Positions 26,178-64,000 of a stretch of 64,000 nucleotides of DNA are shown piece after piece; the stretch's first letter is position 1, and each line of letters starts with the position of its first letter. Source of the stretch: Amphiscolops sp. MND2022 (taxonomy: Eukaryota); assembly GCA_964187785.1 (NCBI GenBank), contig OZ076409.1, positions 25,422,001 through 25,486,000 on the forward strand, in the 5' to 3' direction. The notes beneath the pieces are model-generated. The model had not been told where the DNA came from. It did no database searches and saw only the letters and a program-made list of their open reading frames with translations. The translations under genes were made by a program, and so were the position numbers.

Positions 26178-26449
26178 TCAACGAGACCCGGAACATTTTT
26201 TGCAGTTACAGTTTTTTATGTTGGGCAAAACGAGTTCTGTCGATGACTCGTCATCACAAGTGACGTCACGATATACCAAGTATTTCTTTCCCGTGCAACA
26301 TTTGCAGTCCTGGTCCAGGGGCCACTTAGCAGTGTACTTGCTCTTAACTGCCACGTAGAAGTTGTCGTTGGGGAAAAACATGGCAGACGAGGGTCCACAA
26401 CTGCCCACACATCTTTGTACAGTCACGTTGCGTTCTCCACAGTAGATAC
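26178..26449 (-). CDS. Mucin last coding exon: C-terminal cystine knot (CTCK)
   Basis: YCGERNVTVQRCVGSC...DCKCC...VTCDD...IKNCNCKKCSGSR*. CxGxC, CKCC and CxC spacing typical of CTCK. Acceptor tttag at 26450-51. Confidence 0.92.
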
Positions 26450-26893
26450 CTAAATTTTCAAGAAATTAGGATTTTTAAATAACTTTTTTGTCAAAATGGC
26501 GTGAAGTACTGGAAAAAATCAAACTTTATCATTTGACTGTCACACGACAGGAATGGCTGTATGACATTTATTTGACCGAATTTACAAAAGTTCCAATATC
26601 AACCATGATCCAAACAATAGTGCCGAATCTTTCGAGACGCTGGAATGTACTGATTGAAATAATTCTACACATTCATATGAAAATCAATTTTCTCCAAAAA
26701 ATCTTAGAGCCAATCTAAATCTTTGACCATCAAAGTGCGCTCTGCAGCTTTTGCGAAACCTTTTATCGGCAAATATTGATAATCAGCCGTGACCCGGAAA
26801 ATGTTGAATGAAAACGGCAGAAATAGTGAAAAAAACGCGCTTCGATAAAAATTCGAATCAAATTTAGTAATAGGTTCAGAAAAGGGGGAAAAC

Positions 26894-27017
26894 CTCCTGG
26901 TTTGGTTATGGATAGGGTGACAGAGACGTCTTCAGACCGACATGGTTTCTTTTCACACCTTCCACAGCAATTTTGACTCAGTGCTTCACTCTCATTGGCC
27001 GGGGGAATGTAGATCTC
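26894..27017 (-). CDS. Mucin exon: end of VWC-like domain, start of CTCK
   Basis: EIYIPPANESEALSQNCCGRCEKKPCRSEDVSVTLSITKPG; acceptor ttttttaag, phase 0 in, phase 1 out. Confidence 0.85.
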
Positions 27018-27310
27018 CTTAAAAAAGCTCATAAAAATCATGTATTCATAATGTTTCTGTGAATCTCGAATTTGTTAGGATTCTTTTTTTGCTACACGGT
27101 TTGCGAAAACAAGCTCACCTCGACTAACAGAATAAACTCATTTGCAAGCCCAGATCATGAAAAACCACTACTACGCAACAATAAATCAATAATTGCCGCC
27201 CGAAAAATTGTTGGGAGATCCTTTTTATTACTGTTTCTATGTTGTCAAAAAGGAGTTTGATTTTTCATCATGCTATGCGTTCAACGTGGACAAGGGAGTG
27301 TCTTTCTTAC

Positions 27311-27551
27311 ATCATCGTTACAATGCATGGCACTGGATGGGCCCTGGTCGCATCTGAGTTCTACTCTGGTCTGATTGTCGACACAGAGGGTCTGGAAACA
27401 CTGGGTACTCTCGATGACGTCATTGTTCCGGTACTCCACCCCATCGTAGACACAGACTGCACATCTCTCAGTGTCTGAGTCACACTCTTCTTCCTGGTAC
27501 TCACTCCCGTCGCATTCCCTGCCTCCATGGTCCCCGTGCACCAAAATACAC
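27311..27551 (-). CDS. Mucin exon: end of TSP1 plus VWC-like domain
   Basis: CILVHGDHGGRECDGSEYQEEEC...CVYDGVEYRNND...QCFQTLCVD...C; acceptor ttcttgcag, donor gtaaga. Confidence 0.9.
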
Positions 27552-28189
27552 CTGCAAGAAGAAAAGTTATGTTCCCCCATTACTACGGGGTGGACGCCGA
27601 ATAAGCGCCCTTATCCCCCATAGAAAGCTATGGGACCATATTTCCAGTCAAATGTCCAAGCAAGGGTAGGTTTGAAGCTGTGACTTCAGAGTGACTTGCT
27701 CAAAATGACCTGCAACCAAAAGATAGAATTTATTACTTTTCGGTTTCGTAACAACAAATGATATGTTTTAACCGGGGATTTTAAAAAAATCTTGATAAAA
27801 AATTCATCCCCTTTTAAAACTTTTGCCCATTATGAGCTTCAATCGAAGCGCAGACTTTTAGATCCGGTTTTGTAGCGCTTAAATAGAATTATTCAAATCA
27901 AACATAGGTTTACTAAATACTAATACTTTTCTTATTCTATGTCGTAATTCAAATATCGATTTCGAAGCCTGACAACTTTTCTTCCGCAGGGTTGTCTGGG
28001 GAGGGCCATTTTTCGCAATATCTTGAAATTCTTACCGACTTTGCGTGGATCTGTTGAATGACAAATAATGCCAAATAGTTTGAACAGCAATACATGTAGT
28101 GTTACGTGTGTGAACATTCAACATTACCTAAATCTGGATCGAATACACTGGCTTACCTGAACCTGCATGCATCGGATGCTCTGGCTTAC

Positions 28190-28303
28190 CTGAACCTGGA
28201 TCGGATGCACTGGCTATCACAGGATGTCCACTCACTCCACTCGGTTGCCACACAATCCACTGGACAATCCCCCTCACAACTCAGCACACCATTCACACAA
28301 GAG
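28190..28303 (-). CDS. Mucin exon: end of post-TIL Cys module and start of second TSP1 repeat
   Basis: SCVNGVLSCEGDCPVDCVATEWSEWTSCDSQCIRSRFR; acceptor ttttcag, donor gtaagc, phase 2-2. Confidence 0.92.
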
Positions 28304-28726
28304 CTGAAAAATGTTCAAGAATAATACTTAAAATATTCATTTTTTGCAATAGTTCTCCTTTCCTCATTCTTCAACTCCAGTTGGACTGACGTTCTGTTTC
28401 GTATTGGTGAAGAATTATCTGATAGACTACGAGGTATATAAAAGTTTGATGGTATATAAAAGAAAGATGACACCAGTTTTCTCTGAGAATGAAGAAAGTT
28501 TAAATTTTCTCAATTCTCTAGGTGGACGCCGAATAAGCAGTTCTGTTTCTCTTCCCGGATCTTAGTTCACGAAGCTTCCATGCGATTCCATGCGTGGAAT
28601 CATGACGTTCTTGATTTCCATATGATTTCATGCATGGAATCGCATGGAATGGAAAAGCAAAAATTCTAAAAAGTTGAAACGAGTTTCGAATTCGACCTTA
28701 TCTTTTTCAGCAGAACAACAAGTAAG

Positions 28727-28885: not shown

Positions 28886-28999
28886 ACAAGTAAGGCCGTT
28901 CGATATGGGAGCATTCGCGAGCTACCAGAGAGCCTCCAAATTTCCAGCATAAGTACTTCGGTTCCAGACCGTGTCCGGTATCTTCAACGAACATGTCAC

Positions 29000-32327: not shown

Positions 32328-32586
32328 CATTGTCTATCCGGACAACAGGTGGACGCATTGACACTTCCACTGGGTATGTCGACATCGCACACTGGATCAT
32401 AGCAGGAACAAGCCTCTGGCAGAACACAGGAGGCACTGCTGATGTCGAACACCATGCCCATTTGACAGGTACACCCGTAGGCACACACACTGTCATCGTC
32501 ATTGCACACCTCCGGGGAAGCAAGGGTCAAACATGTATGGCCACACTGGTTCGCACAACTGGACAAGAAAGTGTTTGCGATCACGC
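32328..32586 (-). CDS. Mucin exon: TIL (trypsin-inhibitor-like Cys-rich) domain
   Basis: SSCANQCGHTCLTL..EVC....VCAYGCTCQMGMVFD....CVLPEACSC shows TIL cysteine spacing; acceptor tttcag, donor gtaatc. Confidence 0.92.
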
Positions 32587-34089: not shown

Positions 34090-34287
34090 AGTTAGCGGAA
34101 GAGATATTTGCGCAAGTAACAGCATCAACACTGCAGTCTCGGAATTCTTCGTCGGATCCAATACAGAAATCGCTGCCAATGCCGTACTGCAGAGCCTCAT
34201 TGGAACACGAACGGGTTCTGGTCTGAATGCCCAGCTGACCGCAATCGGCAAAACCACAGTTGCCCCAATCAGACCAAGGGGACCATT
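34090..34287 (-). CDS. Mucin exon: thrombospondin type-1 (TSP1) repeat
   Basis: WSPWSDWGNC...CGQLGIQTRTRSC...FCIGSDEEFRDC; acceptor tttcag, donor gtaagt, phase 1-1. Confidence 0.93.
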
Positions 34288-34865: not shown

Positions 34866-35411
34866 CTGGAATAATGATATTTTCTGGAATAAGCACCACA
34901 GCTTCGCATTCACAGTTGGGGCCCATTACAGAACCGAGTGCAAACCGGTTAGACCCAACAACAGCATAAGTGACAGGTCCTTCACTTACATTTCCCGCAA
35001 TTGAGATATTATAGAACCCAAAAGAGTCAGAAGGCTGCGAATAATTGAAAACTATGCCATTCACACAAGTGTCCTCATCAACTTGTGCTGGTTCATCGGA
35101 CCCCATGTCGAGAATATCTGGTATCCCATTGGAGTCAAATGTGCGGACAGAAAACGTAGACGCTTGCAAACACTTTTCAATGCCTAAAACGAATGAGATC
35201 AATGCTTCCGCAGGCGACCCGCCGCTGTTAGGTTTAAAGGGATCCACTGAAACACGATACGAGAAAGTTGTTTCATTCAAGACATTGTCATACATATTGC
35301 CAAGATAGTCCACCGACCACTCCGCGTCACAAATGGGCACCGTCGCATTTGCTTGGTAGTCCGATGAAGAAGTAACACAGGTGTAATTTTGCGCAGGAAC
35401 TTCTTCGCATC
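34866..35411 (-). CDS. Mucin exon encoding an unassigned ~180-aa beta-rich domain
   Basis: 546-nt open phase 1-1 exon with acceptor tttttatag and donor gtatgt. GC higher than flanking introns; joins in frame to the TSP1 exon. Confidence 0.85.
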
Positions 35412-35426
35412 CTATAAAAATCATCA

Positions 35427-36380: not shown

Positions 36381-39300
36381 CTGGAAAAATTCGTGTGAAA
36401 GAGCAACGAAGCTCGACAGTAGAGCTAGTGCTAAAAGATGTTGCAGGCGAAGACGTGCTGCTTGTGATTGAGCTAGTCGTCGACGAGGTTGTATATGATG
36501 AAGTTCTGCTTGTGGTAGAGCTGGTTGTTGAGGAGGTGGTTGGTGATGATGTGCTACTGGTTGTAGAAGATGTTGTTGACGAAGTCGTGGACGAAGTTGT
36601 AGGTGACGAAGTGCTGCTTGTGGTGGAGCTGGTTGTTGAGGATGTGGTTGGTGATGATGTGCTACTGGTTGTAGAAGATGTTGTTGACGAAGTCGTGGAA
36701 GACGTTGTGGGTGATGAAGTACTGCTTGTGGTAGAGCTGGTTGTCGAGGATGTGGTTGGTGAAGATGTGCTACTGGTTGTAGAAGATGTTGTTGACGAAG
36801 TCGTGGACGAAGTTGTAGGTGATGAAGTGCTGCTTGTGGTGAAGCTGGTTGTTGAGGATGTGGTTGGTGAAGATGTGCTACTGGTTGTAGAAGATGTTGT
36901 TGACGAAGTCGTGGACGAAGTTGTAGGCGATGAAGTGCTGCTTGTTGTGGAGCTGGTAGTTGAGGATGTTGTTGGTGATGATGTGCTACTTGTTGTTGAA
37001 CTTGTTGTTGATGAAGTTGTGGGCGATGAAGTGCTGCTTGTGGTGGAGCTGGTTGTTGAGGATGTCGTTGGTGATGATGTGCTACTGGTTGTAGAAGATG
37101 TTGTTGACGAAGTCGTGGACGAAGTTGTAGGTGATGAAGTGCTGCTTGTGGTGGAGCTCGTAGTTGAGGATGTGGTTGGCGATGATGTGCTACTTGTTGT
37201 TGAACTTGTTGTTGAAGATGTAATTGATGAAGTTGTTGGCGAAGAAGTGCTGCTTGTGGTGGAGCTGGTTGTTGAGGATGTGGTTGGTGATGACGTGCTA
37301 CTGGTTGTAGAAGATGTTGTTGGCGAAGTCGTGGACGAAGTTGTAGGTGACGAAGTGCTGCTTGTGGTGGAGCTGGTTGTTGAGGATGTGGTTGGTGATG
37401 ATGTGCTACTGGTTGTAGAAGATGTTGTTGACGAAGTCGTGGAAGACGTTGTGGGTGATGAAGTACTGCTTGTGGTAGAGCTGGTTGTCGAGGATGTGGT
37501 TGGTGAAGATGTGCTACTGGTTGTAGAAGATGTTGTTGACGAAGTCGTGGACGAAGTTGTAGGTGATGAAGTGCTGCTTGTGGTGAAGCTGGTTGTTGAG
37601 GATGTGGTTGGTGAAGATGTGCTACTTGTTGTAGAAGATGTTGTTGACGAAGTCGTGGACGAAGTTGTAGGCGATGAAGTGCTGCTTGTTGTGGAGCTGG
37701 TAGTTGAGGATGTTGTTGGTGATGATGTGCTACTTGTTGTTGAACTTGTTGTTGATGAAGTTGTGGGCGATGAAGTGCTGCTTGTGGTGGAGCTGGTTGT
37801 TGAGGATGTCGTTGGTGATGATGTGCTACTGGTTGTAGAAGATGTTGTTGACGAAGTCGTGGACGAAGTTGTAGGTGATGAAGTGCTGCTTGTGGTGGAG
37901 CTCGTAGTTGAGGATGTGGTTGGCGATGATGTGCTACTTGTTGTTGAACTTGTTGTTGAAGATGTAATTGATGAAGTTGTTGGCGAAGAAGTGCTGCTTG
38001 TGGTGGAGCTGGTTGTTGAGGATGTGGTTGGTGATGACGTGCTACTGGTTGTAGAAGATGTTGTTGGCGAAGTCGTGGACGAAGTTGTAGGTGACGATGT
38101 GCTGCTTGAAGTGGAGCTGGTTGTTGAGGATGTGGTTGGTGAAGATGTGCTACTGGTTGTAGAAGATGTTGTTGGCGAAGTCGTGGACGAAGTTGTAGGT
38201 GATGAAGTGCTGCTTGTGGTGGAGCTCGTTGTTGAGGATGTGGTTGGTGATGATGTGCTGCTTGTGATTGAACTTGTTGTTGAAGATGTAGTTGATGAAG
38301 TTGTTGGCGAAGAAGTGCTGCTTGTTGTGGAGCTGGTTGTTGAGGATGTGGTTGGTGATGATGTGCTACTGGTGGTAGAAGATGTTGTTGACGAAGTCGT
38401 GGACGACGTTGTGGGTGATGAAGTACTGCTTGTGGTAGAGCTGGTAGTTGAGGATGTTGTTGGTGATGATGTGCTACTTGTTGTTGAACTTGTTGTTGAT
38501 GAAGTTGTGGGAGATGAAGTGCTGCTAGTGGTGGAGCTGGTTGTTGAGGATGTGGTTGGTGATGACGTGCTACTGGTTGTAGAAGATGTTGTTGGCGAAG
38601 TCGTGGACGAAGTTGTAGGTGACGATGTGCTGCTTGTGGTGGAGCTGGTTGTTGAGGATGTGGTTGGTGAAGATGTGCTACTGGTTGTAGAAGATGTTGT
38701 TGGCGAAGTCGTGGACGAAGTTGTAGGTGATGAAGTGCTGCTTGTAGTGGAGCTGGTTGTTGAGGATGTGGTTGGTGATGATGTGCTGCTTGTGATTGAA
38801 CTTGTTGTTGAAGATGTAGTTGATGAAGTTGTTGGCGAAGAAGTGCTGCTTGTGGTGGAGCTGGTTGTTGAGGATGTTGTTGGTGATGATGTGCTACTGG
38901 TTGTTGAACTTGTTGTTGAAGATGTAGTTGACGAAGTTGTAGGTGACGAAGTGCTGCTTGTGGTGGAGCTGGTTGTTGAGGATGTGGTTGGTGAAGATGT
39001 GCTACTGGTTGTAGAAGATGTTGTTGACGAAGTCGTGGAAGACGTTGTGGGTGATGAAGTACTGCTTGTGGTAGAGCTGGTAGTTGAGGATGTTGTTGGT
39101 GATGATGTGCTACTTGTTGTTGAACTTGTTGTTGATGAAGTTGTGGGAGATGAAGTGCTGCTAGTGGTGGAGCTGGTTGTTGAGGATGTGGTTGGTGATG
39201 ATGTGCTACTGGTGGTAGAAGATGTCGTTGACGAAGTCGTGGACGAAGTTGTAGGTGACGAAGTGCTGCTTGTGGTGGAGCTGGTTGTTGAGGATGTGGT

Positions 39301-42300
39301 TGGTGAAGATGTGCTACTGGTTGTAGAAGATGTTGTTGACGAAGTCGTGGAAGACGTTGTGGGTGATGAAGTACTGCTTGTGGTAGAGCTGGTTGTTGAG
39401 GATGTGGTTGGTGATGATGTGCTGCTTGTGATTGAACTTGTTGTTGAAGATGTAGTTGATGAGGTTGTTGGCGAAGAAGTGCTGCTTGTGGTGGAGCTGG
39501 TAGTTGAGGATGTTGTTGGTGATGATGTGCTACTGGTTGTTGAACTTGTTGTTGAAGATGTAGTTGATGAAGTTGTTGGCGAAGAAGTGCTGCTTGTGGT
39601 GGAGCTGGTTGTTGAGGATGTGGTTGGTGATGATGTGCTACTGGTGGTAGAAGATGTCGTTGACGAAGTCGTGGACGAAGTTGTAGGTGACGAAGTGCTG
39701 CTTGTGGTGGAGCTGGTTGTTGAGGATGTGGTTGGTGAAGATGTGCTACTGGTTGTAGAAGATGTTGTTGACGAAGTCGTGGAAGACGTTGTGGGTGATG
39801 AAGTACTGCTTGTGGTAGAGCTGGTAGTTGAGGATGTTGTTGGTGATGATGTGCTACTTGTTGTTGAACTTGTTGTTGATGAAGTTGTGGGAGATGAAGT
39901 GCTGCTAGTGGTGGAGCTGGTTGTTGAGGATGTGGTTGGTGATGATGTGCTACTGGTGGTAGAAGATGTCGTTGACGAAGTCGTGGACGAAGTTGTAGGT
40001 GACGAAGTGCTGCTTGTGGTGGAGCTGGTTGTTGAGGATGTGGTTGGTGAAGATGTGCTACTGGTTGTAGAAGATGTTGTTGACGAAGTCGTGGAAGACG
40101 TTGTGGGTGATGAAGTACTGCTTGTGGTAGAGCTGGTAGTTGAGGATGTTGTTGGTGATGATGTGCTACTGGTGGTAGAAGATGTCGTTGACGAAGTCGT
40201 GGACGAAGTTGTAGGTGACGAAGTGCTGCTTGTGGTGGAGCTGGTTGTTGAGGATGTGGTTGGTGAAGATGTGCTGCTGGTTGTAGAAGATGTTGTTGAC
40301 GAAGTCGTGGAAGACGTTGTGGGTGATGAAGTACTGCTTGTGGTAGAGCTGGTAGTTGAGGATGTTGTTGGTGATGATGTGCTACTTGTGGTTGAACTTG
40401 TTGTTGATGAAGTTGTAGGTGATGAAGTGCTGCTTGTGGTGGAGCTCGTTGTTGAGGATGTGGTTGGTGATGATGTGCTGCTTGTGATTGAACTTGTTGT
40501 TGAAGATGTAGTTGATGAAGTTGTTGGCGAAGAAGTGCTGCTTGTGGTGGAGCTGGTTGTTGAGGATGTCGTTGGTGATGATGTGCTACTGGTTGTAAAA
40601 GATGTCGTTGACGAAGTCGTGGACGAAGTTGTAGGTGATGAAGTGCTGCTTGTGGTGGAGCTCGTTGTTGAGGATGTGGTTGGTGATGATGTGCTACTTG
40701 TTGTTGAACTTGTTGTTGAAGATGTAGTTGATGAAGTTGTTGGCGAAGAAGTGCTGCTTGTGGTGGAGCTGGTTGTTGAGGATGTGGTTGGTGATGATGT
40801 GCTACTGGTGGTAGCAGATGTCGTTGACGAAGTCGTGGACGAAGTTGTAGGTGACGAAGTGCTGCTTGTGGTGGAGCTGGTTGTTGAGGATGTGGTTGGT
40901 GAAGATGTGCTACTTGTGGTTGAACTTGTTGTTGATGAAGTTGTAGGTGATGAAGTGCTGCTTGTGGTGGAGCTCGTTGTTGAGGATGTGGTTGGTGATG
41001 ATGTGCTGCTTGTGATTGAACTTGTTGTTGAAGATGTAGTTGATGAAGTTGTTGGCGAAGAAGTGCTGCTTGTGGTGGAGCTGGTTGTTGAGGATGTCGT
41101 TGGTGATGATGTGCTACTGGTTGTAAAAGATGTCGTTGACGAAGTCGTGGACGAAGTTGTAGGTGATGAAGTGCTGCTTGTGGTGGAGCTCGTTGTTGAG
41201 GATGTGGTTGGTGATGATGTGCTACTTGTTGTTGAACTTGTTGTTGAAGATGTAGTTGATGAAGTTGTTGGCGAAGAAGTGCTGCTTGTGGTGGAGCTGG
41301 TTGTTGAGGATGTGGTTGGTGAAGATGTGCTACTGGTTGTTGAACTTGTTGTTGATGAAGTTATGGGCGACGAAGTGCTGCTTGTGGTGGAGCTGGTTGT
41401 TGAGGATGTGGTTGGTGAAGATGTGCTACTGGTTGTAGAAGATGTTGTTGACGAAGTCGTGGAAGACGTTGTGGGTGATGAAGTACTGCTTGTGGTAGAA
41501 CTGGTAGTTGAGGATGTTGTTGGTGATGATGTGCTACTTGTTGTTGAACTTGTTGTTGATGAAGTTATGGGCGACGAAGTGCTGCTTGTGGTGGAGCTGG
41601 TTGTTGAGGATGTGGTTGGTGAAGATGTGCTACTGGTTGTAGAAGATGTTGTTGACGAAGTCGTGGAAGACGTTGTGGGTGATGAAGTACTGCTTGTGGT
41701 AGAGCTGGTAGTTGAGGATGTTGTTGGTGATGTTGTGCTACTTGTTGTTGAACTTGTTGTTGATGAAGTTGTAGGTGACGAAGTGCTGCTTGTGGTGGAG
41801 CTGCTTGTTGAGGATGTGGTTGGTGATGATGTGCTACTGGTTGTAGAAGATGTTGTCGATGAAGTCGTGGACGAAGTTGTGGGCGATGAAGTGCTGCTTG
41901 TAGTAGAGCTAGTCGTCGACGATGTTGTTGGTGACGAAGTGCTGCTTGTTGTAGAGCTAGTCGTAGATGACGTCGTTGGTGATGAAGTGCTGCTTGTTGT
42001 CGAGCTCGTCGTGGATGATGTCGTTGGTGATGAAGTACTGCTTGTTGTAGAGCTAGTCGTAGATGATGTCGTTGGTGACGAAGTGCTGCTTGTTGTAGAG
42101 CTAGTCGTAGATGATGTCGTTGATGACGAAGTGCTGCTTGTTGTAGAGCTAGTCGTAGATGATGTCGTTGGTGACGAAGTGCTGCTTGTTGTAGAGCTGG
42201 TTGTTGATGAAGTTGTTGGCGAGGAAGTACTGCTTGTTGTAGAGCTAGTCGTAGATGATGTCGTTGGTGACGAAGTGCTGCTTGTTGTAGAGCTAGTCGT

Positions 42301-43076: not shown

Positions 43077-43130
43077 GATTGAGATGATGACGAGGATTGC
43101 AGTGTCGGAATACGAGGTTCCTCGGTTGGG
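43077..43130 (-). CDS. Mucin 54-nt linker mini-exon
   Basis: PTEEPRIPTLQSSSSQS; acceptor ttttttag, donor gtaagt, phase 2-2. Confidence 0.85.
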
Positions 43131-48800: not shown

Positions 48801-51800
48801 GTAGACGACGTGGTCGGTGATGAAGTGCTGCTTGTTGTGGATGATGTCGTCGATGATGTTGTACTGCTTGTAGTGGAGCTAGTCGTAGATGAAGTTGTGG
48901 GTGATGTTGTACTGCTTGTGGTGGAGCTAGTCGTAGATGAAGTTGTTGGTGATGAAGTGCTGCTTGTTGTCGAGCTTGTCGTGGAGGATGTTGTTGGTGA
49001 TGAAGTGCTGCTTGTTGTTGAGCTTGTCGTTGAGGATGTTGTTGGTGATGATGTGCTGCTTGTTGTAGAGCTTGTCGTCGACGATGTCGTTAGTGATGAA
49101 GTGCTGCTTGTTGTCGAGCTTGTCGTGGAGGATGTTGTTGGTGATGAAGTGCTGCTTGTGGTGGAGCTAGTCGTAGATGATGTCGTTGGTGATGAAGTAC
49201 TGCTTGTTGTGGAGCTTGTCGTAGACGACGTGGTCGGTGATGATGTGCTGCTTGTTGTCGAGCTTGTTGTGGATGATGTCGTTGGTGATGAAGTACTACT
49301 TGTTGTGGAGCTTGTCGTAGACGACGTGGTCGGTGATGAAGTGCTGCTTGTTGTAGAGCTAGTCGTAGAGGATGTCGTTGGTGATGAAGTACTGCTGCTT
49401 GTTGAAGATGTTGTAGGTGATGAAGTGCTGCTTGTTGTGAAGCTTGTCGTTGATGACGTCGTCGGTGATGATGTGCTGCTTGTTGTTGACGATGTCGTCG
49501 AAGATGTTGTACTGCTTGTTGTTGAGCTCGTCGTGGATGATGTTGTTGGCGATGAAGTGCTGCTTGATGTCGAGCTCGTCGTGGATGATGTTGTTGGCGA
49601 TGAAGTGCTGCTTGTTGTCGAGCTCGTCGTGGATGATGTTGTTGGTGATGAAGTGCTGCTTGTTGTAGAGCTTGACGTCGACGATGTCGTTGGTGATGAA
49701 GTACTGCTGGTTGTTGATGATGTTGTAGGTGATGAAGTGCTGCTTGTTGTTGAGCTAGTTGTAGATGATGTCGTTGGTGATGACGTACTGCTCGTGGTAG
49801 AGCTGGTTGTGAAGGAACTTGTTGACGAGGAAGTCCTGCTTGTTGTAGAGCTGGTCGTTGGTGAAGTTGTTGGCGAGGAAGTGCTACTTGTTGTCGATGA
49901 TGTCGTTGGTGATGATGTGCTGCTTGTGATAGAACTGGTTGTAGATGAAGTTGTTGATGATGACGTGCTGCTCGTTGTAGAGCTTGTGGTAGATGATGTT
50001 GTCGGTGATGAAGTACTGCTTGTTGTGGAGCTTGTGGTAGACGACGTGGTCGGCGATGAAGTGCTGCTTGTTGTTGAGCTAGTTGTAGATGATGTCGTTG
50101 GAGATGATGTACTGCTCGTGGTAGAGCTGGTTGTTGAGGAAGTTGTTGGCGAGGAAGTACTGCTTGTTGTAGAGCTGGTTGTTGATGAAGTTGTTGGCGA
50201 GGAAGTGCTACTTGTTGTCGATGATGTCGTTGGTGATGACGTGCTACTTGTGATAGAACTGGTTGTCGATGACGTCGTTGGTGATGATGTGCTGCTTGTG
50301 ATAGAACTGGTTGTAGATGAAGTTGTTGATGATGACGTGCTGCTCGTGGTAGAGCTTGTCGTAGATGATGTCGTCGGTGATGATGTGCTGCTTGTTGTTG
50401 AGCTAGTTGTAGATGATGTCGTTGGTGATGAAGTACTGCTCGTGGTAGAGCTGGTTGTTGAAGAAGTTGTTGGCGATGAAGTACTGCTTGTTGTAGAGCT
50501 GGTTGTTGATGAAGTTGTTGGCGAGGAAGTGCTACTTGTTGTAGAGCTGGTTGTTGATGAAGTTGTTGGCGAGGAAGTGGTACTTGTTGTCGATGATGTC
50601 GTTGGTGAAGACGTGCTGCTTGTGATAGAACTGGTTGTCGATGATGTCGTTGGTGATGATGTGCTGCTAGTGATAGAACTGGTTGTAGATGAAGTTGTTG
50701 ATGATGACGTGCTGCTCGTGGTAGAGCTTGTCGTAGATGATGTCGTCGGTGATGATGTGCTGCTTGTTGTGGAGCTAGTTGTAGATGATGTCGTTGGTGA
50801 TGAAGTACTGCTCGTGGTAGAGCTGGTTGTTGAGGAAGTTGTTGGCGATGAAGAACTGCTTGTTGTAGAGCTGGTTGTTGATGAAGTTGTTGGCGAGGAA
50901 GTGGTACTTGTTGTCGATGATGTCGTTGGTGACGACGTGCTGCTTGTGATAGAACTGGTTGTCGATGATGTCGTTGGTGATGATGTGCTGCTAGTGATAG
51001 AACTGGTTGTAGATGAAGTTGTTGATGATGACGTGCTGCTCGTGGTAGAGCTTGTCGTAGATGATGTCGTCGGTGATGATGTGCTGCTTGTTGTTGAGCT
51101 AGTTGTAGATGATGTCGTTGGCGATGAAGTACTGCTCGTGGTAGAGCTGGTTGTTGAGGAAGTTGTTGGCGATGAAGTACTGCTTGTTGTAGAGCTGGTT
51201 GTTGATGAAGTTGTTGGCGAGGAAGTGCTACTTGTTGTCGATGATGTCGTTGGTGACGACGTGCTGCTTGTGATAGAACTGGTTGTCGATGATGTCGTTG
51301 GTGATGAAGTGCTGCTAGTGATAGAACTGGTTGTAGATGAAGTTGTTGATGATGACGTGCTGCTCGTGGTAGAGCTTGTCGTAAATGATGTCGTCGGTGA
51401 TGATGTGCTGCTTGTTGTTGAGCTAGTTGTAGATGATGTCGTTGGTGATGAAGTACTGCTCGTGGTAGAGCTGGTTGTTGAGGAAGTTGTTGGCGATGAA
51501 GTACTGCTTGTTGTAGAGCTGGTTGTTGATGAAGTTGTTGGCGAGGAAGTGGTACTTGTTGTCGATGATGTCGTTGGTGACGACGTGCTGCTTGTGATAG
51601 AACTGGTTGTCGATGATGTCGTTGGTGATGATGTGCTGCTAGTGATAGAACTGGTTGTAGATGAAGTTGTTGATGATGACGTGCTGCTCGTTGTGGAGCT
51701 TGAGGTAGACGACGTGGTCGGCGATGAAGTGCTGCTTGTTGTTGAGCTAGTTGTAGATGATGTCGTTGGTGATGAAGTACTGCTCGTGGTAGAGCTGGTT

Positions 51801-54800
51801 GTTGAGGAAGTTGTTGGCGAGGAAGTACTGCTTGTTGTAGAGCTGGTTGTTGATGAAGTTGTCGGCGAGGAAGTGCTACTTGTTGTCGATGATGTCGTTG
51901 GTGATGACGTGCTGCTTGTGATAGAACTCGTTGTAGATGAAGTCGTTGATGATGACGTGCTGCTCGTTGTAGCGCTTGTGGTAGATGATGTGGTCGGTGA
52001 TGAAGTACTGCTTGTAGTGGAGCTTGTGGTAGACGACGTGGTCGGTGATGATGTGCTGCTTGTTGTTGAGCTAGTTGTAGATGATGTCGTTGGCGATGAA
52101 GTACTGCTTGTTGTAGAGCTGGTTGTTGAAGAAGTTGTTGGCGAGGAAGTGCTACTTGTTGTCGATGATGTCGTTGGTGATGACGTGCTGCTTGTGATAG
52201 AACTGGTTGTTGATGATGTCGTTGGTGATGATGTGCTGCTTGTGATAGAACTGGTTGTAGATGAAGTTGTTGATGATGACGTGCTGCTCGTGGTAGAGCT
52301 TGTCGTAGATGATGTCGTCGGTGACGATGTGCTGCTTGTTGTTGAGCTAGTTGTAGATGATGTTGTTGGTGATGAAGTACTGCTCGTGGTAGAGCTGGTT
52401 GTTGAGGAAGTTGTTGGCGAGGAAGTACTGCTTGTTGTAGAGCTGGTTGTTGATGAAGTTGTTGGCGAGGAAGTGCTACTTGTTGTCGATGATGTCGTTG
52501 GTGATGACGTGCTGCTTGTGATAGAACTCGTTGTAGATGATGACGTGCTGCTCGTTGTAGAGCTTGTGGTAGATGATGTTGTCGGTGATGAAGTACTGCT
52601 TGTAGTGGAGCTTGTGGTAGACGACGTGGTCGGTGATGATGTGCTGCTTGTTGTTGAGCTAGTTGTAGATGATGTCGTTGGTGATGATGTACTGCTCGTG
52701 GTAGAGCTGGTTGTTGAGGAAGTTGTTGGCGATGAAGTACTGCTTGTTGTAGAGCTGGTTGTTGAGGAAGTTGTTGGCGAGGAAGTGCTACTTGTTGTCG
52801 ATGATGTCGTTGGTGATGACGTGCTGCTTGTGATAGAACTGGTTGTCGATGATGTCGTTGGTGATGATGTGCTGCTTGTGATAGAACTGGTTGTAGATGA
52901 AGTTGTTGATGATGACGTGCTGCTCGTGGTAGAGCTTGTCGTAGATGATGTCGTCGGTGACGATGTGCTGCTTGTTGTTGAGCTAGTTGTAGATGATGTT
53001 GTTGGTGATGAAGTACTGCTCGTGGTAGAGCTGGTTGTTGAGGAAGTTGTTGGCGAGGAAGTACTGCTTGTTGTAGAGCTGGTTGTTGATGAAGTTGTTG
53101 GCGAGGAAGTGCTACTTGTTGTGGATGATGTCGTTGGTGATGACGTGCTGCTTGTGATAGAACTCGTTGTAGATGATGACGTGCTGCTCGTTGTAGAGCT
53201 TGTGGTAGATGATGTTGTCGGTGATGAAGTACTGCTCGTGGTAGAGCTGGTTGTTGAGGAAGTTGTTGGCGATGAAGTACTGCTTGTTGTAGAGCTGGTT
53301 GTTGAGGAAGTTGTTGGCGAGGAAGTGCTACTTGTTGTCGATGATGTCGTTGGTGATGACGTGCTGCTTGTGATAGAACTGGTTGTCGATGATGTCGTTG
53401 GTGATGATGTGCTGCTTGTGATAGAACTGGTTGTAGATGAAGTTGTTGATGATGACGTGCTGCTCGTGGTAGAGCTTGTCGTAGATGATATCGTCGGTGA
53501 TGGTGTGCTGCTTGTTGTTGAGCTAGTTGTAGATGATGTCGTTGGTGATGATGTACTGCTCGTGGTAGAGCTGGTTGTTGTGGAAGTTGTTGGCGAGGAA
53601 GTGCTGCTTGTTGTAGAGCTAGTTGTTGATGAGGTTGTAGGCGATGATGTGCTGCTTGTCGTAGAGCTTGTCGAAGATGAGGTTGTAGGTGATGATGTGC
53701 TGCTTGTCGTAGAACTTGTCGTGGATGAAGTTGTTGGTGACGAAGTACTGCTGGTTGTCGAGCTCGTCGTGGATGAAGTTGTTGGTGACGAAGTACTGCT
53801 GGTTGTTGACGATGTTGTGGGCGATGAGGTGCTGCTTGTTGTAGAGCTTGTCGTAGATGAAGTTGTGGGGGATGATGTGCTGCTTGTTGTAGAGCTTGTG
53901 GTAGATGAGGTCGTTGGTGATGATGTGCTACTTGTTGTCGAGCTCGTCGTAGATGATGTCGTTGGCGACGAAGTGCTGCTTGTTGTAGAGCTAGTCGTAA
54001 ATGATGTCGTTGGTGATGAAGTACTGCTTGTTGTATAGCTGGTTGTTGAAGATGTTGTTGGTGATGATGTGCTGCTTGTTGTAGAGCTCGTCGTAGATGA
54101 AGTTGTGGGGGATGATGTGCTGCTTGTTGTAGAGCTTGTCGTAGATGAAGTTGTGGGGGATGATGTGCTGCTTGTTGTAGAGCTTGTCGTAGATGAAGTT
54201 GTGGGGGATGATGTGCTGCTTGTTGTCGAGCTCGTCGTGGATGATGTTGTTGGTGACGAAGTACTGCTGGTTGTGGACGATGTTGTAGGTGATGATGTGC
54301 TGCTTGTTGTAGAGCTTGTTGTAGAGCTTGTCGTAGATGAAGTTGTGGGGGATGATGTGCTGCTTGTTGTAGAGCTTGTGGTAGATGAGGTCGTTGGTGA
54401 TGATGTACTGCTTGTTGTCGAGCTCGTCGTGGATGAAGTTGTGGGTGATGATGTGCTGCTTGTTGTAGAGCTTGTGGTAGACGAGGTCGTTGGTGATGAT
54501 GTACTGCTTGTTGTCGAGCTCGTCGTGGATGAAGTTGTGGGTGATGATGTGCTGCTTGTCGTAGAACTTGTCGTGGATGAAGTTGTTGGTGACGAAGTGC
54601 TGCTTGTTGTAGAGCTAGTCGTAAATGATGTCGTTGGTGATGAAGTACTGCTTGTTGTATAGCTGGTTGTTGAAGATGTTGTTGGTGATGATGTGCTGCT
54701 TGTTGTAGAGCTTGTCGTAGATGAAGTTGTGGGGGATGATGTGCTGCTTGTTGTCGAGCTTGTCGTGGACGAAGTTGTAGGTGATGTTGTGCTGCTTGTT

Positions 54801-57800
54801 GTAGAGCTTGTGGTAGATGAGGTTGTTGGTGATGATGTGCTGCTTGTTGTCAAGCTTGTCGTGGATGAAGTTGTTGGTGACGAAGTACTGCTGGTTGTTG
54901 ACGATGTTGTGGGCGATGAGGTGCTGCTTGTTGTAGAGCTTGTGGAAGATGAGGTCGTTGGTGATGATGTGCTGCTTGTTGTCGAGCTCGTCGTAGATGA
55001 TGTCGTTGGCGACGAAGTGCTGCTTGTTGTAGAGCTAGTCGTAAATGATGTCGTTGGTGATGAAGTACTGCTTGTTGTATAGCTGGTTGTTGAAGATGTT
55101 GTTGGTGATGATGTGCTGCTTGTTGTAGAGCTTGTCGTAGATGAAGTTGTAGGTGATGATGTGCTGCTTGTCGTAGAACTTGTCGTGGATGAAGTTGTTG
55201 GTGACGAAGTACTGCTGGTTGTGGACGATGTTGTGGGCGATGAGGTGCTGCTTGTTGTAGAGCTTGTGGTAGATGAGGTCGTTGGTGATGATGTGCTGCT
55301 TGTTGTCGAGCTCGTCGTAGATGAAGTCGTTGGTGACGAAGTGCTGCTTGTTGTAGAGCTAGTCGTAAATGATGTCGTTGGTGATGAAGTACTGCTTGTT
55401 GTATAGCTGGTTGTTGAAGATGTTGTTGGTGATGATGTGCTGCTTGTTGTAGAGCTTGTCGTAGATGAAGTTGTGGGGGATGATGTGCTGCTTGTTGTAG
55501 AGCTTGTGGTAGATGAGGTCGTTGGTGATGATGTGCTGCTTGATGTCGAGCTCGTCGTAGATGATGTTGTTGGTGACGAAGTACTGCTGGTTGTGGACGA
55601 TGTTGTAGGTGATGATGTGCTGCTTGATGTAGAGCTTGTCGTAGATGAAGTTGTGGGGGATGATGTGCTGCTTGTCGTAGAACTTGTCGTGGATGAAGTT
55701 GTTGGTGACGAAGTACTGCTGGTTGTGGACGATGTTGTGGGCGATGAGGTGCTGCTTGTTGTAGAGCTTGTGGTAGATGAGGTCGTTGGTGATGATGTGC
55801 TGCTTGTTGTCGAGCTCGACGTAGATGATGTCGTTGGTGACGAAGTGCTGCTTGTTGTAGAGCTAGTCGTAAATGATGTCGTTGGTGATGAAGTACTGCT
55901 TGTTGTATAGCTGGTTGTTGAAGATGTTGTTGGTGATGATGTGCTGCTTGTTGTAGAGCTTGTCGTAGATGAAGTTGTGGGGGATGATGTGCTGCTTGTT
56001 GTAGAGCTTGTGGTAGATGAGGTCGTTGGTGATGATGTGCTGCTTGTTGTCGAGCTCGTCGTGGATGATGTTGTTGGTGACGAAGTACTGCTGGTTGTGG
56101 ACGATGTTGTAGGTGATGATGTGCTGCTTGTTGTAGAGCTTGTGGTAGATGAGGTCGTTGGTGATGATGTACTGCTTGTTGTCGAGCTCGTCGTGGATGA
56201 AGTTGTAGGTGATGATGTGCTGCTTGTCGTAGAACTTGTCGTGGATGAAGTTGTTGGTGACGAAGTACTGCTGGTTGTGGACGATGTTGTGGGCGATGAG
56301 GTGCTGCTTGTTGTAGAGCTTGTGGTAGATGAGGTCGTTGGTGATGATGTGCTGCTTGTTGTCGAGCTCGTCGTAGATGAAGTCGTTGGTGACGAAGTGC
56401 TGCTTGTTGTAGAGCTAGTCGTAAATGATGTCGTTGGTGATGAAGTACTGCTTGTTGTATAGCTGGTTGTTGAAGATGTTGTTGGTGATGATGTGCTGCT
56501 TGTTGTAGAGCTTGTCGTAGATGAAGTTGTGGGGGATGATGTGCTGCTTGTTGTAGAGCTTGTGGTAGATGAGGTCGTTGGTGATGATGTGCTGCTTGAT
56601 GTCGAGCTCGTCGTAGATGATGTTGTTGGTGACGAAGTACTGCTGGTTGTGGACGATGTTGTAGGTGATGATGTGCTGCTTGTTGTAGAGCTTGTCGTAG
56701 ATGAAGTTGTGGGGGATGATGTGCTGCTTGTCGTAGAACTTGTCGTGGATGAAGTTGTTGGTGACGAAGTACTGCTGGTTGTGGACGATGTTGTGGGCGA
56801 TGAGGTGCTGCTTGTTGTAGAGCTTGTGGTAGATGAGGTCGTTGGTGATGATGTGCTGCTTGTTGTCGAGCTCGACGTAGATGATGTCGTTGGTGACGAA
56901 GTGCTGCTTGTTGTAGAGCTAGTCGTAAATGATGTCGTTGGTGATGAAGTACTGCTTGTTGTATAGCTGGTTGTTGAAGATGTTGTTGGTGATGATGTGC
57001 TGCTTGTTGTAGAGCTTGTCGTAGATGAAGTTGTGGGGGATGATGTGCTGCTTGTTGTAGAGCTTGTGGTAGATGAGGTCGTTGGTGATGATGTGCTGCT
57101 TGTTGTCGAGCTCGTCGTGGATGATGTTGTTGGTGACGAAGTACTGCTGGTTGTGGACGATGTTGTAGGTGATGATGTGCTGCTTGTTGTAGAACTTGTC
57201 GTGGATGAAGTTGTTGGTGACGAAGTACTGCTGGTTGTCGAGCTCGTCGTGGATGAAGTTGTGGGTGATGATGTGCTGCTTGTTGTAGAGCTGGTCGTAG
57301 ATGATGTCGTTGGTGATGAAGTGCTGCTTGTTGTGGAGCTAGTCGTAGATGATGTCGTTGGTGACGAAGTGCTGCTTGTTGTAGAGCTAGTCGTAAATGA
57401 TGTCGTTGGTGATGAAGTACTGCTTGTTGTATAACTGGTTGTTGAAGATGTTGTTGGTGATGATGTGCTGCTTGTCGTAGAACTTGTCGTGGATGAAGTT
57501 GTTGGTGACGAAGTACTGCTGCTTGTGGACGATGTTGTAGGTGATGATGTGCTGCTTGTTGTAGAGCTTGTCGTAGATGAAGTTGTGAGGGATGATGTGC
57601 TGCTTGTTGTAGAGCTTGTGGTAGATGAGGTCGTTGGTGATGATGTGCTGCTTGTTGTCGAGCTTGTCGTGGACGAAGTTGTAGGTGATGATGTGCTGCT
57701 TGTCGTGGATGAAGTTGTTGGTGATGATGTGCTGCTTGTCGTGGATGAAGTTGTTGGTGATGAAGTACTACTAGTTGTATAGCTGGTTGTTGAGGATGTT

Positions 57801-57929
57801 GTTGAAGATGTTGTAGGGGATGAAGTGCTACTGGTTGTAAAACTAGTTGTGTGTGATGTGGTAGGTGGTGTGCTACTGGTAGATGGAGGCGTTGGAAATC
57901 TTGATCCAGTCGAGGTGGTTCCTATGGAG
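45819..57929 (-). CDS. Mucin PTS exon 1 (12,111 nt; 4,037 codons of Ser/Thr/Pro repeats)
   Basis: Acceptor ttttag at 57930-31, donor ag|gtatta. Same frame as the 3019-aa ORF. All antisense ORF fragments share one frame, implying no frameshift. Confidence 0.92.
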
Positions 57930-58419: not shown

Positions 58420-58473
58420 GATTTAGACGACGATGTTCGAAACGTTGGGATCCGAGTCTCAGGAGTTGTTGAA
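58420..58473 (-). CDS. Mucin 54-nt linker mini-exon
   Basis: STTPETRIPTFRTSSSKS; acceptor ttctag, donor gtaagt; paralog of 61773-61826. Confidence 0.85.
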
Positions 58474-58650
58474 CTAGAATGATTAGACAAGAAATTACTT
58501 TCCACAATATTTGATCATGTAACCTCCCCATTGTTTAATTCAGCGAACGCATTTCTAATTCAAATTTTTCTTCTTTTTTTCAACCTTTGAAGACGATGCG
58601 ACCCGGAAGCTTATTTCACATGTTGATGTTCTGAAGCATGTATTACGGAC

Positions 58651-59085
58651 CTGGTCGTTCCCGAGCTGGTAGAACTAGTCGTGAATGAAGTTGTCGGCGA
58701 AGAGGTACTACGTTTCGTTGAACTAGTTGTTGATGACGTAGATGATGACGTAGTTGAGGACGTAGTTGATGACATAGTTGAGGACGTAGTTGAGGACGTA
58801 GTTGATGACGTAGTTGACGAAGTAGTGGGTGAAGATGTGCTACTTGTTTTCGATGATGTCGTCGAAGATGTTGTACTGCTTGCTGTCGAACTTGTCGTGG
58901 ACGAAGTTGTTGGTGATGAAGTACTACTAGTTGTATAGCTGGTTGTTGAGGATAATGTTGAAGATGTTGTAGGGGATGAAGTGCTACTGGTTGTAAAATT
59001 GGTTGTTGACGAGGTGGTTGGTGGTGTGCTACTGGTTGGAGGCGTTGGAAGTTCTCTTGTTCCAATCGAGGTGGTTCCGGTGGAT
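58651..59085 (-). CDS. Mucin short PTS exon (435 nt)
   Basis: STGTTSIGTRELPTPP...S/T repeats; acceptor ttttag. Donor ag|gtccgt is weak but phase-compatible. Confidence 0.78.
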
Positions 59086-59103
59086 CTAAAATTGTTTTGT
59101 TAA

Positions 59104-61128: not shown

Positions 61129-61772
61129 TAGACTGTTTCTTTTAACAAGGCTTTACGCAATGAAGCATAGAATCTCAGAGTTTAGGCAATTAGTACCAGT
61201 ACTTATTTACAAACACGTTACATCATTTCAATCGCTCTATCACAATATTAGTTGCTTTCTGTTAGTTACTTATTAAGGTACGATGGCTCAGTTGGTGACA
61301 TGACAATCATTCAATGATCATACATATAGAAACCTCTAAGTTATAGCATGGTCATAAAATGTTGTCATTTCATGTCATGTCTGGAACTAATAAGTTCCAT
61401 GCTGTTCAGGGTGACAGTTTTGGATTCATATATGAATTTTGTTCACTCTATTTCTCTTCATAAAGTCAACGTATTCTTTGTTGAATCAACAGCTTCAATT
61501 TTTGAGTCACAAAATCAGTTAACTCGAACATAATCACCGTCAGAATGTGTGAAAAATGTTTTTTTTTTCAAACTGAAAAATAGTTCCCAAATAGAGGTTA
61601 TCTTTCAGTTTTGATTAGGCCAGTGTGGAAGCTTTTTTGTAAACTTCTTTCAAAATCTACTTATGGCGGGAGGACAGAAAAAAGCCAAGCCACCTAATTT
61701 AACAGTACCAAGCTGTTTGGTTGAAACACAAAACTAAACACTTTGAAAGCTATTTAAAATGATGTCACTTAC

Positions 61773-61826
61773 GATTGAGACGACGATGTTCGAAACGTTG
61801 GGATCCGAGACTCAGGAGTTGTTGAA
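61773..61826 (-). CDS. Mucin 54-nt linker mini-exon
   Basis: STTPESRIPTFRTSSSQS; donor gtaagt, phase 2-2. Confidence 0.85.
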
Positions 61827-62123
61827 CTAGAATGTTTAGACAAAAATTACTTTCCACGATATTTGATCATGTAACCTCCCCATTGTTGGATTCAGCGGGG
61901 GGGGGGGTGTTGATTCTAACTCTTGATCGTATTCTGCTTTTCATTTGCCGAATAGAAGTTCCTAGAGGAAGTGGTCTAAACTTTGAGTTCGTTCAGACCA
62001 TGCTCGTTCTGATTTCAAAATAATACAGTACTTTCATTTGAATTTTACTTCGTGTTTTCATGAACAGTTTCCTAAGACATTTTTCATAAGTAGTCTCAAT
62101 TACACGTCAGATAAGAAACTTAC

Positions 62124-62186
62124 GTTGATGGTATTGACGACGATGAAAACGAAAATGTTGGAGGTCTCGGTTCAGAGGTTGGCAAA
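62124..62186 (-). CDS. Mucin 63-nt linker mini-exon
   Basis: LPTSEPRPPTFSFSSSSIPS; acceptor atttcag, donor gtaagt, phase 2-2. Confidence 0.82.
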
Positions 62187-62845
62187 CTGAAATAATCCAT
62201 CATTGTGGCACTTTAACACAAAAAGTGTTTCTTCTGAGAAAAATATACGATGAAGAGATATTCAATAAGTTTTGAAACGGGCTTAATTGGGCCACGTACA
62301 TCTATGAAACTTCGTTACTCTGAATATACAAGCACAGTTGCGTCATCAAATAACAGACGAAAAATGCTTTCTTGAAAAATGAATTGCCAAAAACGTTATA
62401 ATTCCGTGGAAACCAATTTTTACGGAGGACTATTGAAAAATTAGCATTTTGTGATCATTTTGCTGCGTAAATTTTTGAATATTGAATATTGCGTTTTCAG
62501 AAAACGTGTTTTAAGTCCGAAGTTAGAGATCTGAATCAAATGTACAACATTTGTTTGATGCCTTTTTTGTTACGAACAGCGGTTTTCGAGATGGATGATA
62601 ACATCCGAGAATGCTGGATGTCGCCATCAGACGGAATGATAGATTTTGTAATGTTGTTTGATTTCGAAAATACCGGTAATTCGGCTCGGAATTTGGAAAA
62701 ATTTGGCTCCTGGTAATTTTGTTTCTATTGGTCAAGTATTTTTCTTGAAATTTAATTGAAGGGAGTTTAAATTTTTGTCAGCAAAATTGATTGTCTTTAG
62801 CCATTTGGCACCCTAATGTGTCAAAAATACTTGAAAGAATCTATT

Positions 62846-63361
62846 CCCTGGTTGAAACTGCTTGAACTTTTCATTTTGTGAAAATTATGAAAGAAAAGTC
62901 CATTCATTAAAACGTCACTGATGATTTACCTTTATAAAGTTGCTTTTAAAGAGCATCCTAAATTTGGCGGCAATTCTGCGCCGCAAAATTTTGCAGGTTT
63001 CATTAACACGCCATTCTAATTTTGAAAGCAGCTGAGACCTTCGTCAATTTTACCGCGGTTTCAATGCAAATAAACTTCAGTCACATTATAAGCTTCAAAG
63101 TAGCGTCATATTCAACGTGCTATTTGACTAACGGTGATTACAGAAGGTAGTTGCTTGAGAAACTTACCCGTGAAAACAAAGTGATCGCAACGGTGAAGAA
63201 GTGGAAATGTTTTCAGTTTTAATTCAAATAATAGAGGCTGCATTGTAATCCCACAAAATGTTTCCATGCAGGCTCCCGGAATTTTCCATGTTTTGTAAAC
63301 AAAAAATTTGCCTGCATGTTTCCATGCAGCATGTAAAAAGTTCAAGCAATCTCGACTAGGG
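62846..63361. mobile_element. Second copy of CCCT...AGGG MITE
   Basis: Imperfect 22-bp TIRs ccctggttgaaactgcttgaac / gttcaagcaatctcgactaggg; body aligns with 59104-59625. Confidence 0.7.
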
Positions 63362-63966
63362 TTGAGCACAAATCTGTGACCTCATTAAATAGCTGGTAAT
63401 CACAGCTTGTCAACTGACCATTGTTCGAATGACTACGTGTTGGGAAGTATGAAATCATGACGTGTAAAGTTTCCAAAAAAAATTGACAACCAAGAAAAGA
63501 ATAATTGCGAAATGGGTAAAATTACATAGATGTCAATTGGGGTCGCATTCCATCATCTTTCTCAGTAAAAAGTATATCGAAACGGCCTGACAGAAAACAT
63601 CCATTGTCGATTGCTATTGTCGACCTCTTCAAAGTTAATGGAAAATCTTTTTGGCTACTTCGATATATGACATGATACATATCACTACTGTTAGCGCTAC
63701 TGTTAATCGAATATGCATCATGATATATAGGGAAGCTATAAATAATGCACTCAAAATAATTTATTGGGTACCAGAAATCAACGTACACCATTCTTAATTC
63801 AAACTTTTAGAATTTGAGGCTTCAATTTTGTTTCGGATGTTTCCAAAATTTTTGACCTTACGGGTTGCCTTAGTTTATCTATTCTACTCTTCTATAGTCA
63901 AGAAAGCGCTTCAAAACAATACGCAGGCCATATTTTCCCTAATTAAAATTCAGCAAATTTTCTTAC

Positions 63967-64000
63967 CTTTCTGTAGCAGAGGTGGTTGTGTGTTTCGTTG
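63967..64000 (-). CDS. Mucin exon (partial, continues beyond window)
   Basis: TKHTTTSATE followed by strong donor ag|gtaaga, phase 2 matching the next exon. Confidence 0.7.

Follow-up and report, generated by a model that had tools for sequence, protein, structure and literature searches.

The closest described systems to the gene considered here are the gel-forming mucins and SCO-spondin of the VWF/mucin superfamily. MUC2, MUC5AC and MUC5B (and MUC6) are characterized by a large region rich in Pro, Thr and Ser (PTS), a VWC-type stalk and a terminal cystine knot, and MUC6 is without VWD4 and VWC, so that loss of VWD4 alone is not new (PMC10082768, PMC4948705). Mucins and VWF form tail-to-tail dimers through the knot, in which three disulfides link the dimer (PMC10082768), and polymers through their N-terminal VWD units (PMC10082768, PMC8487547). 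SCO-spondin begins with EMI, three VWD domains, FA5/8C and an LDLrA array, and the chick protein has 27 thrombospondin repeats (TSR), 12 TIL and 13 LDLrA domains, with no PTS listed (PMC8487547). Invertebrate mucin-like proteins cluster nearest to the SCO-spondins (Lang et al., 2016, PMC4948705). Two invertebrate secretions also bear on the comparison: Mlig-ap2 of Macrostomum lignano, with N-terminal VWD, TIL and LDLa domains, central repeats and C-terminal TSP1 repeats (PMC6410801), and the limpet pedal mucus protein P-vulgata_6, with four TSP1 domains and a cystine knot (PMC7333891). Here we analyzed a stretch of 64,000 nucleotides from Amphiscolops sp. MND2022 (contig OZ076409.1, positions 25,422,001 to 25,486,000; hereafter the window), the minus strand of which probably encodes the 3′ portion of a mucin that is secreted, forms polymers and belongs to the SCO-spondin-like branch of the superfamily.

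The 59-36 kb region of the minus strand holds two long stop-free frames composed of Ser, Thr and Pro (S/T/P), at 57943-45797 (4,049 codons) and 42972-36373 (2,200 codons), and a third, short frame of the same kind. Exons were found by reading the flanks of the frames in three frames, and Pfam was run exon by exon. The resulting model has 13 exons from 61826 to 26178, with AG/GT at every site and the phase kept across all 12 introns. Its spliced product is 7,013 aa long with a single stop at 26178-26180 and is 5′-incomplete; neither a start codon nor a signal peptide lies within the window, and the 5′ end of the gene lies beyond it. The most upstream exon, at 61826-61773 (54 nt), extends a 12-exon model of 6,995 aa to this length, and it was the only addition returned by a scan of the long introns that filtered for S/T/P- or Cys-rich exons with common donor patterns. 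Four further exon readings at three intron sites were rejected, as their phases do not fit, and the long plus-strand frames rich in Val, Asp, Glu and Leu are shadows of the minus-strand frames, interrupted by stops. As read from the genomic sequence, a total above 7,000 aa requires that every PTS exon and mini-exon be spliced in.

The PTS part comprises 6,418 aa, of which Ser contributes 49.1%, Thr 42.8% and Pro 6.1% (together 98.1%) and Cys none. It consists of tandem repeats in units of about 12-20 aa with higher-order periods. One identical 16-aa unit is present in 223 copies encoded by 112 DNA forms with a mean nucleotide difference of 18%, and among the 6,411 codons of the five PTS exons, TCA and TCG, each one change away from a stop, occur 1,341 times, yet no stop is present. 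Because of this synonymous diversity, and because none of the TCA and TCG codons has turned into a stop, the PTS is under coding constraint. The building unit, one 54-nt mini-exon followed by one PTS exon, is present three times, and all mini-exons and PTS exons are of phase 2-2 except the last PTS exon (phase 2-1); in-frame duplication or skipping is therefore possible. A 183-bp block found twice at 95% identity (58363-58545 and 61716-61897) holds a mini-exon in each copy, and this is a sign that an exon unit was duplicated recently.

After the PTS follow domain X, a TSP1 repeat, TIL, a Cys module, a second TSP1 repeat, a VWC-like domain and a cystine knot. Together these parts span 595 aa and contain 58 Cys and 11 N-glycosylation sequons; each of the two TSP1 repeats has WxxW motifs. 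The original prediction of about 6,400 aa of S/T/P ahead of a TSP1/TIL/VWC-like/CTCK tail is thus matched by the exon model. On single exons, TSP_1 and TIL score above the Pfam cut-off. The 11 Cys of the knot include a C-x-C-C core and are spaced 18, 9, 3, 30, 1, 0, 12, 15, 1, 2, which we take to fit the VWF-type pattern. A PDB sequence search with the knot exon gave no match. The order TSP1, TIL, VWC and terminal CTCK is that of SCO-spondin, the scores of VWC and knot in the window being weak; the domain types concerned are recorded for SCO-spondin in PMC8487547.

That PTS and tail belong to one gene is supported by a sequence from another animal. When the JGI collection was scanned with the alignment of X, two of 42 candidate stretches were confirmed, L007 and L008, of which L008 was then dropped as false, having no score on the domain X profile. 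L007 is a record of 3,241 nt without introns, and we read it as transcript-derived because introns are absent, an inference from the sequence. It runs from 284 residues of Thr/Ser repeats, similar in type to those of the window, into X and on through the full tail to a stop, in the same order as in the window: X, TSP1, TIL, Cys module, TSP1, VWC-like, knot. Its alignment with the predicted tail spans 547 columns at 49% identity, pairs 56 of the 58 Cys and has no indel larger than 9 aa. Its one frame shift lies inside X, away from the PTS-X junction, and the PTS runs into X in one frame. Pfam found two TSP1 and one TIL on the unspliced frame, and neither VWD nor C8 in the window exons or the L007 frames. 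The L007 knot matched bursicon at E 0.033 and retains all 11 knot Cys; single-sequence prediction of its structure reached a predicted local distance difference test (pLDDT) of 36, with no usable fold. We accepted the weak donor of exon 26894..27017 because this part of the model is collinear with L007. Since L007 is collinear, with 56 of 58 Cys aligned and a largest indel of 9 aa, PTS and tail are, by this comparison, one gene without a hidden VWD exon. The original prediction had placed the PTS and the Cys-rich exons in one gene ending without a VWD assembly; both alternatives to it, two separate genes and an unrecognized VWD exon, failed against these data as far as the tail is concerned. 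L007 covers the last 284 residues of the PTS only, and both L007 and the relative described next are 5′-incomplete.

The nearest named relative is XP_063713885.1 (P0021), a RefSeq protein of 375 aa from the acoel Symsagittifera roscoffensis that is annotated as 'SCO-spondin-like', in agreement with the type of tail originally predicted. As the nearest named relative, it points to an acoel origin of the window. Its matches to five tail exons run in the order of the window, with identities of 32-76% per exon, and the shared part reaches from the C-terminal half of X through TSP1, TIL, the Cys module and the second TSP1 to the start of the VWC-like domain. Unlike the window gene, this automatic fragment model has no PTS and no knot, and X is not named in it. 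A word-index search with P0021 found only two unrelated LRR/TSP1/trypsin proteins among 949. Domain X is 37% identical between the window and L007, versus 43-71% for the other tail exons, and is thus the fastest-evolving part of the tail.

In MUC2 and the MUC5 mucins the PTS is followed by VWCN-VWD4-C8, whereas the window has X and two TSP1 repeats there and no VWD4-C8-TIL order; X occupies the VWCN-VWD4 place at the head of the C-terminal stalk. Mucins of this type also begin with a signal peptide and three VWD-C8-TIL units. The long TSR and TIL arrays of chick SCO-spondin are likewise absent after the PTS of the window gene. Mlig-ap2 has a similar plan, that of a secreted giant with central repeats and C-terminal TSP1, but its repeats measure 221-255 aa and are not short S/T/P units. 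Of the proposal that the locus encodes a hybrid of possibly undescribed plan, the hybrid of a mucin PTS with a TSP1-type tail stands, and the claim of novelty gives way to the precedents of Mlig-ap2, P-vulgata_6, the SCO-spondin-like mucins of invertebrates and MUC6. A glycosylated repeat that ends in TSP1 or a cystine knot already has precedents, and the new element is X. Excerpts of PMC6410801 and PMC7333891 describe no X-like domain for Mlig-ap2 or P-vulgata_6. In the excerpts of the literature searched, no account of the window architecture or of X was found; an example of PTS-TSP1-knot may be among the proteins of supplementary figure S4 and the online architecture lists that accompany PMC4948705. 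What had been noted as an unassigned domain is, from its sequence relationships, the most unusual part of the protein, having homologues in microbes while belonging to no family of Pfam or NCBIfam.

Searching 1.84 billion representative sequences with X by phmmer gave 22 hits at E<=1e-3, one of them the window locus itself. The X profile supports 20 of these; an ankyrin protein (P0011) and a tick repeat (P0014) had no score on a profile built from the rest and were discarded as false. The hits include an Acidobacteria protein (E 2e-8) and an Anaerolineae/Chloroflexota cluster. Sources were looked up for 20 of the 22, and those with a name are the acoel, Acidobacteria, Anaerolineae/Chloroflexota and the false tick hit, the rest being unnamed. 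From GTDB, six of 20 pattern matches were confirmed in four phyla, the carriers being Shewanella jiangmenensis, Marinobacterium maritimum, Sulfurovum and metagenome-assembled genomes of Planctomycetales, Verrucomicrobiota and Gammaproteobacteria. At these loci X stands near the protein start, before an SdrD_B-like region, and a signal-peptide-like start is visible in five of six; SdrD_B itself scored on the equivalent bacterial proteins P0006, P0019 and P0022. X is sparse in bacteria, with 3/301, 4/301 and 1/401 genomes in three phylum samples, the seed genome counted each time. No family covers X in Pfam (E<=10), NCBIfam or PHROGs, no PDB sequence matched it below E 0.4, and no VWD chain appeared among the PDB matches of the X profiles. 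Plasmids gave no match and viral contigs none confirmed among 16 candidate stretches; word-index searches found none among 415 longer candidates and four among 4,542 when alignment A2 was used. For positions 34000-35500 no RNA record was listed, which says nothing about expression.

The homology of X to the bacterial surface-protein domain (L001-L006, P0006, P0015, P0051 and others) extends over about 130 aa. The bacterial copies are N-terminal, ahead of SdrD_B-like or DUF7507 repeats, or stand in tandem, and in the mucin copies, by contrast, the central loop is longer and further paired Cys are present. Several members (L001, L002, L005, L006, P0006, P0019, P0022) form a conserved bacterial family of about 420-440 aa, scattered over unrelated phyla, that consists of X, an SdrD_B-like part and a conserved C-terminal region, two of these parts being without a family model. 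Three unnamed proteins (P0012, P0018, P0003) each carry a signal peptide and two copies of X; P0012 and P0018 end in a hydrophobic tail resembling a glycosylphosphatidylinositol signal and may be protist surface proteins. The matches to P0049 and P0017 end, and the RefSeq model P0021 begins, near the same mid-X point. This suggests an intron inside X in those three lineages, in comparison with the single exon of the window.

A structural model of X was computed with AlphaFold2 from a 20-row alignment. It predicts an all-beta sandwich of ten strands (pLDDT 85, predicted template modelling score 0.79), and the tied best fold matches were Ig-like domains of bacterial adhesins and glycosidases at Z 7-8, with SdrD at Z 7.2 (root mean square deviation (rmsd) 3.9, 119 aligned). 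Foldseek gave no standout (best E 1e-4, TM 0.40); VIA-align gave one of 48,161 chains at Z>=8; the best match in the viral library had rmsd 12. No VWD chain is among the fold matches listed, and unlisted families may match as well. A two-copy prediction returned no answer (0.02) and was used neither way. By ESM features, X lies near two chlorophyte clusters in which 17% and 27% are PF12499 members (0.94, 0.93), with low recognition (1653), and near a Bacillota cluster (0.93-0.94, recognition low); P0010, a second X member, reaches 0.89 to two of the same clusters. HMMER placed PF12499 on none of the 20 members of alignment A5 and in none of five carrier genomes; its single occurrence among the 301 genomes of the Planctomycetota sample scored below cut-off and is interrupted by a stop. 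PF12499 (DUF3707) is the pherophorin domain, and a relation of X to pherophorins is a weak lead. In the volvocine algal matrix, pherophorins set a globular domain beside a glycosylated rod, with postulated carbohydrate binding and cross-linking (PMC9200674).

How might such a protein work? The approximately 5,900 Ser and Thr residues would be O-glycosylated, by analogy with mucins, to give a stiff hydrated rod. A mucin rod rises 0.25 nm per residue, so its length would be about 1.5 micrometres. The conservation of Cys suggests that disulfides of the knot would join two chains tail to tail. An N-terminal VWD region that would allow longer polymers is predicted upstream of the window, a prediction that we think rather likely to hold. 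Again by analogy, the product may be released by epidermal gland cells as strands of gliding or protective mucus. Observations on acoels are consistent with this: 'SCO-Spondin 3' is a marker of secretory cells dispersed through the superficial layer in Isodiametra (PMC8097308), and S. roscoffensis is wrapped in copious mucus of its own in which bacteria are retained (PMC4183113). In view of its bacterial setting and fold class, the role that we tentatively favour for X, as the likeliest one, is to bind glycans, neighbouring chains, or the surfaces of microbes or algae.

The origin of X can be read in different ways. In an unrooted tree of 41 domain copies, those of the window, P0002, P0021 and L007 group, apart from the named bacteria, with the unnamed P0007 at 97/52. 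In an equally unrooted tree of 37 rows, which leaves out the long or divergent rows P0016, P0051, L010 and L011, the mucin copies and P0007 join at 97/94 with all named bacteria outside; P0002 is counted here among the mucin-type copies and is an animal exon by inference only. We regard it as evenly balanced whether the acoel lineage acquired X from a microbe in the form of a phase 1-1 exon. That X is instead an old eukaryotic extracellular module, possibly pherophorin-like and maybe a spacer, which was lost or diverged in other animals without any transfer, is a serious possibility that falls somewhat short of even. Phase 1-1 exons are typical of old animal modules, and the nearest rows of the tree are unnamed, some of them eukaryote-like in features such as a signal peptide, extra Cys or a hydrophobic C-terminus. 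The fast divergence of X, which limits detection, and the ESM proximity to the PF12499-bearing chlorophyte clusters also speak for it. On the other side, no other animal was found among the 20 of 22 hits looked up, save the failed tick repeat, bacteria of several phyla are present, and the low ESM recognition and the absence of PF12499 from the A5 members make the algal connection a weak lead. It is distinctly unlikely that the VWD assembly was replaced by a lectin derived from a microbe or alga, in a superfamily with bacterial adhesins, protist surface proteins and pherophorins, that crosslinks the gel or binds an algal symbiont or mucus bacteria.

With regard to the whole protein, an Mlig-ap2-like component of a glue or cocoon, from an adhesive gland or egg capsule, would also account for central repeats with C-terminal TSP1 repeats, which Mlig-ap2 combines with Gal-GalNAc (PMC6410801). 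The adhesive mucus of the limpet joins TSP1 and a cystine knot (PMC7333891), and the bacterial carriers of X look like surface adhesins. However, a repeat of 98% S/T/P in units of about 12-20 aa is that of a mucin PTS, unlike the 221- and 255-aa repeats of Mlig-ap2, and we consider such a glue unlikely as an alternative to a gliding-mucus gel former; both roles can also coexist. A neural or sensory matrix protein, as a true SCO-spondin counterpart in an internal fibre or statocyst matrix, would explain why the tail is built of SCO-spondin domain types (PMC8487547) and the RefSeq name of the nearest relative, but two TSP1 and one TIL stand against the arrays of the chick protein, a PTS of 6,400 aa fits bulk mucus, and the Isodiametra marker sits in superficial secretory cells; we hold this to be quite improbable. 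Very remote is an artefact of the model, in which the PTS would be satellite DNA or a separate gene, or its length an assembly error. Some donors are weak, exact internal repeats in the PTS reach about 500 nt, which leaves the assembled repeat length uncertain, and L007 has a frame shift inside X. Nevertheless, the repeats show synonymous diversity without stops, the phase is kept in 12 of 12 introns, and L007 passes from PTS to X in one frame. Several points weigh against the preferred interpretation of an SCO-spondin-like, polymer-forming mucin with a microbe-related domain. The upstream PTS exons rest on genomic sequence outside the cover of L007 and P0021, the N-terminus lies beyond the window, and the second TSP1, the VWC-like domain and the knot score below Pfam cut-offs on single exons. 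The tree names no donor for X: P0007 within the clade and the rows sister to it, P0013 and P0003 (96/86), are all unnamed. Because X evolves fast and even the acoel P0021 matched only at E 4e-4, the searches could have overlooked diverged copies in other animals. With a best Z of 8.2 (rmsd 3.2, 109 aligned), the fold matches of X are middling and indicate fold class and not function. Finally, a cell cluster of P. naikaiensis that expresses SCO-spondin and mucin was interpreted as neurosecretory (10.64898/2026.09.27.754747), which also favours the neural alternative. None of the cell markers, in Isodiametra or P. naikaiensis, is tied to the window gene itself.

As a probable polymer-forming mucin, the window gene provides a concrete candidate molecule for the mucus of acoels. 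On this mucus depend their gliding, their adhesion and their associations with microbes and algae, and it has so far been known mostly by cell markers. It adds to the mucin/SCO-spondin family a branch with a true PTS rod and a TSP1-type tail, and bears on the proposal that SCO-spondin arose from an adhesive mucus protein. Domain X, of about 20 kDa, defines an unclassified, foldable family common to an animal mucin and bacterial surface proteins. If X did come from a microbe, a foreign module would have entered an animal mucin by exon shuffling. The exons of the model are listed in Table 1.

Table 1. Exons of the predicted mucin gene in 5′ to 3′ order of the transcript, with positions in the window; E values are those of Pfam on single exons.
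Feature	Positions	Strand	Phase and splice sites	Matches
54-nt mini-exon, copy 1; S/T/P-rich linker, most 5′ exon in the window	61773..61826	-	2-2; AG/GT; open frame	
435-nt PTS exon	58651..59085	-	2-2; weak donor site	start 86% identical to start of the 12-kb exon
54-nt mini-exon, copy 2	58420..58473	-	2-2	
12,111-nt PTS exon, about 4,037 aa of S/T/P repeats	45819..57929	-	2-2	
54-nt mini-exon, copy 3, diverged	43077..43130	-	2-2	
6,581-nt PTS exon with 11-aa Cys-bearing linker at its end	36381..42961	-	2-1	junction to X matched in L007
Domain X, one exon of 182 codons, 7 Cys	34866..35411	-	1-1	
TSP1 repeat 1, two overlapping WxxW motifs	34090..34287	-	1-1	TSP_1 E 3e-7; 52% identical to L007
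TIL and first half of Cys module (VWC/TILa-like by our reading)	32328..32586	-		TIL E 4e-8; 61% identical to S. roscoffensis protein
End of Cys module and start of TSP1 repeat 2	28190..28303	-		TSP1_spondin E 1e-3, below cut-off; 76% identical to P0021, 71% to L007
End of TSP1 repeat 2 and VWC-like domain	27311..27551	-		VWC E 0.011, below cut-off; 70% identical to L007
End of VWC-like domain and first Cys of cystine knot	26894..27017	-	weak donor	59% identical to L007
Cystine-knot (CTCK-like) exon and stop codon	26178..26449	-		Cys_knot E 0.007, below cut-off

Some repeats lie within the gene. A 29-bp unit present three times at 28124-28215 duplicates the donor of exon 28190-28303 into the intron, creating possible decoy donors. 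The first intron contains an imperfect palindrome of about 640 bp (60488-61130, 75% self-complementary) that resembles a miniature inverted-repeat transposable element, and two copies of a dispersed repeat, seen by eye, lie in tail introns at about 35990-35430 and 32270-31780. Elsewhere, ARAGORN found no tRNA gene in the window. The AT-rich stretch at about 6000-14000 (GC about 30%) holds fragments of open reading frames with P-loop-like and cysteine-protease-like motifs; these presumably resemble remnants of Polinton/adintovirus elements, a resemblance to which Pfam and PHROGs gave no support. A long terminal repeat retrotransposon of the Ty3/Gypsy type is present at 15428-20731 on the plus strand, with gag, protease, reverse transcriptase, RNase H and integrase recognized by Pfam; an in-frame stop and a change of frame interrupt its coding sequence. 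Another Gypsy-like copy, now decayed, lies at about 1870-4370 on the same strand (Integrase_H2C2 E 3.5e-6, weak RNase H).

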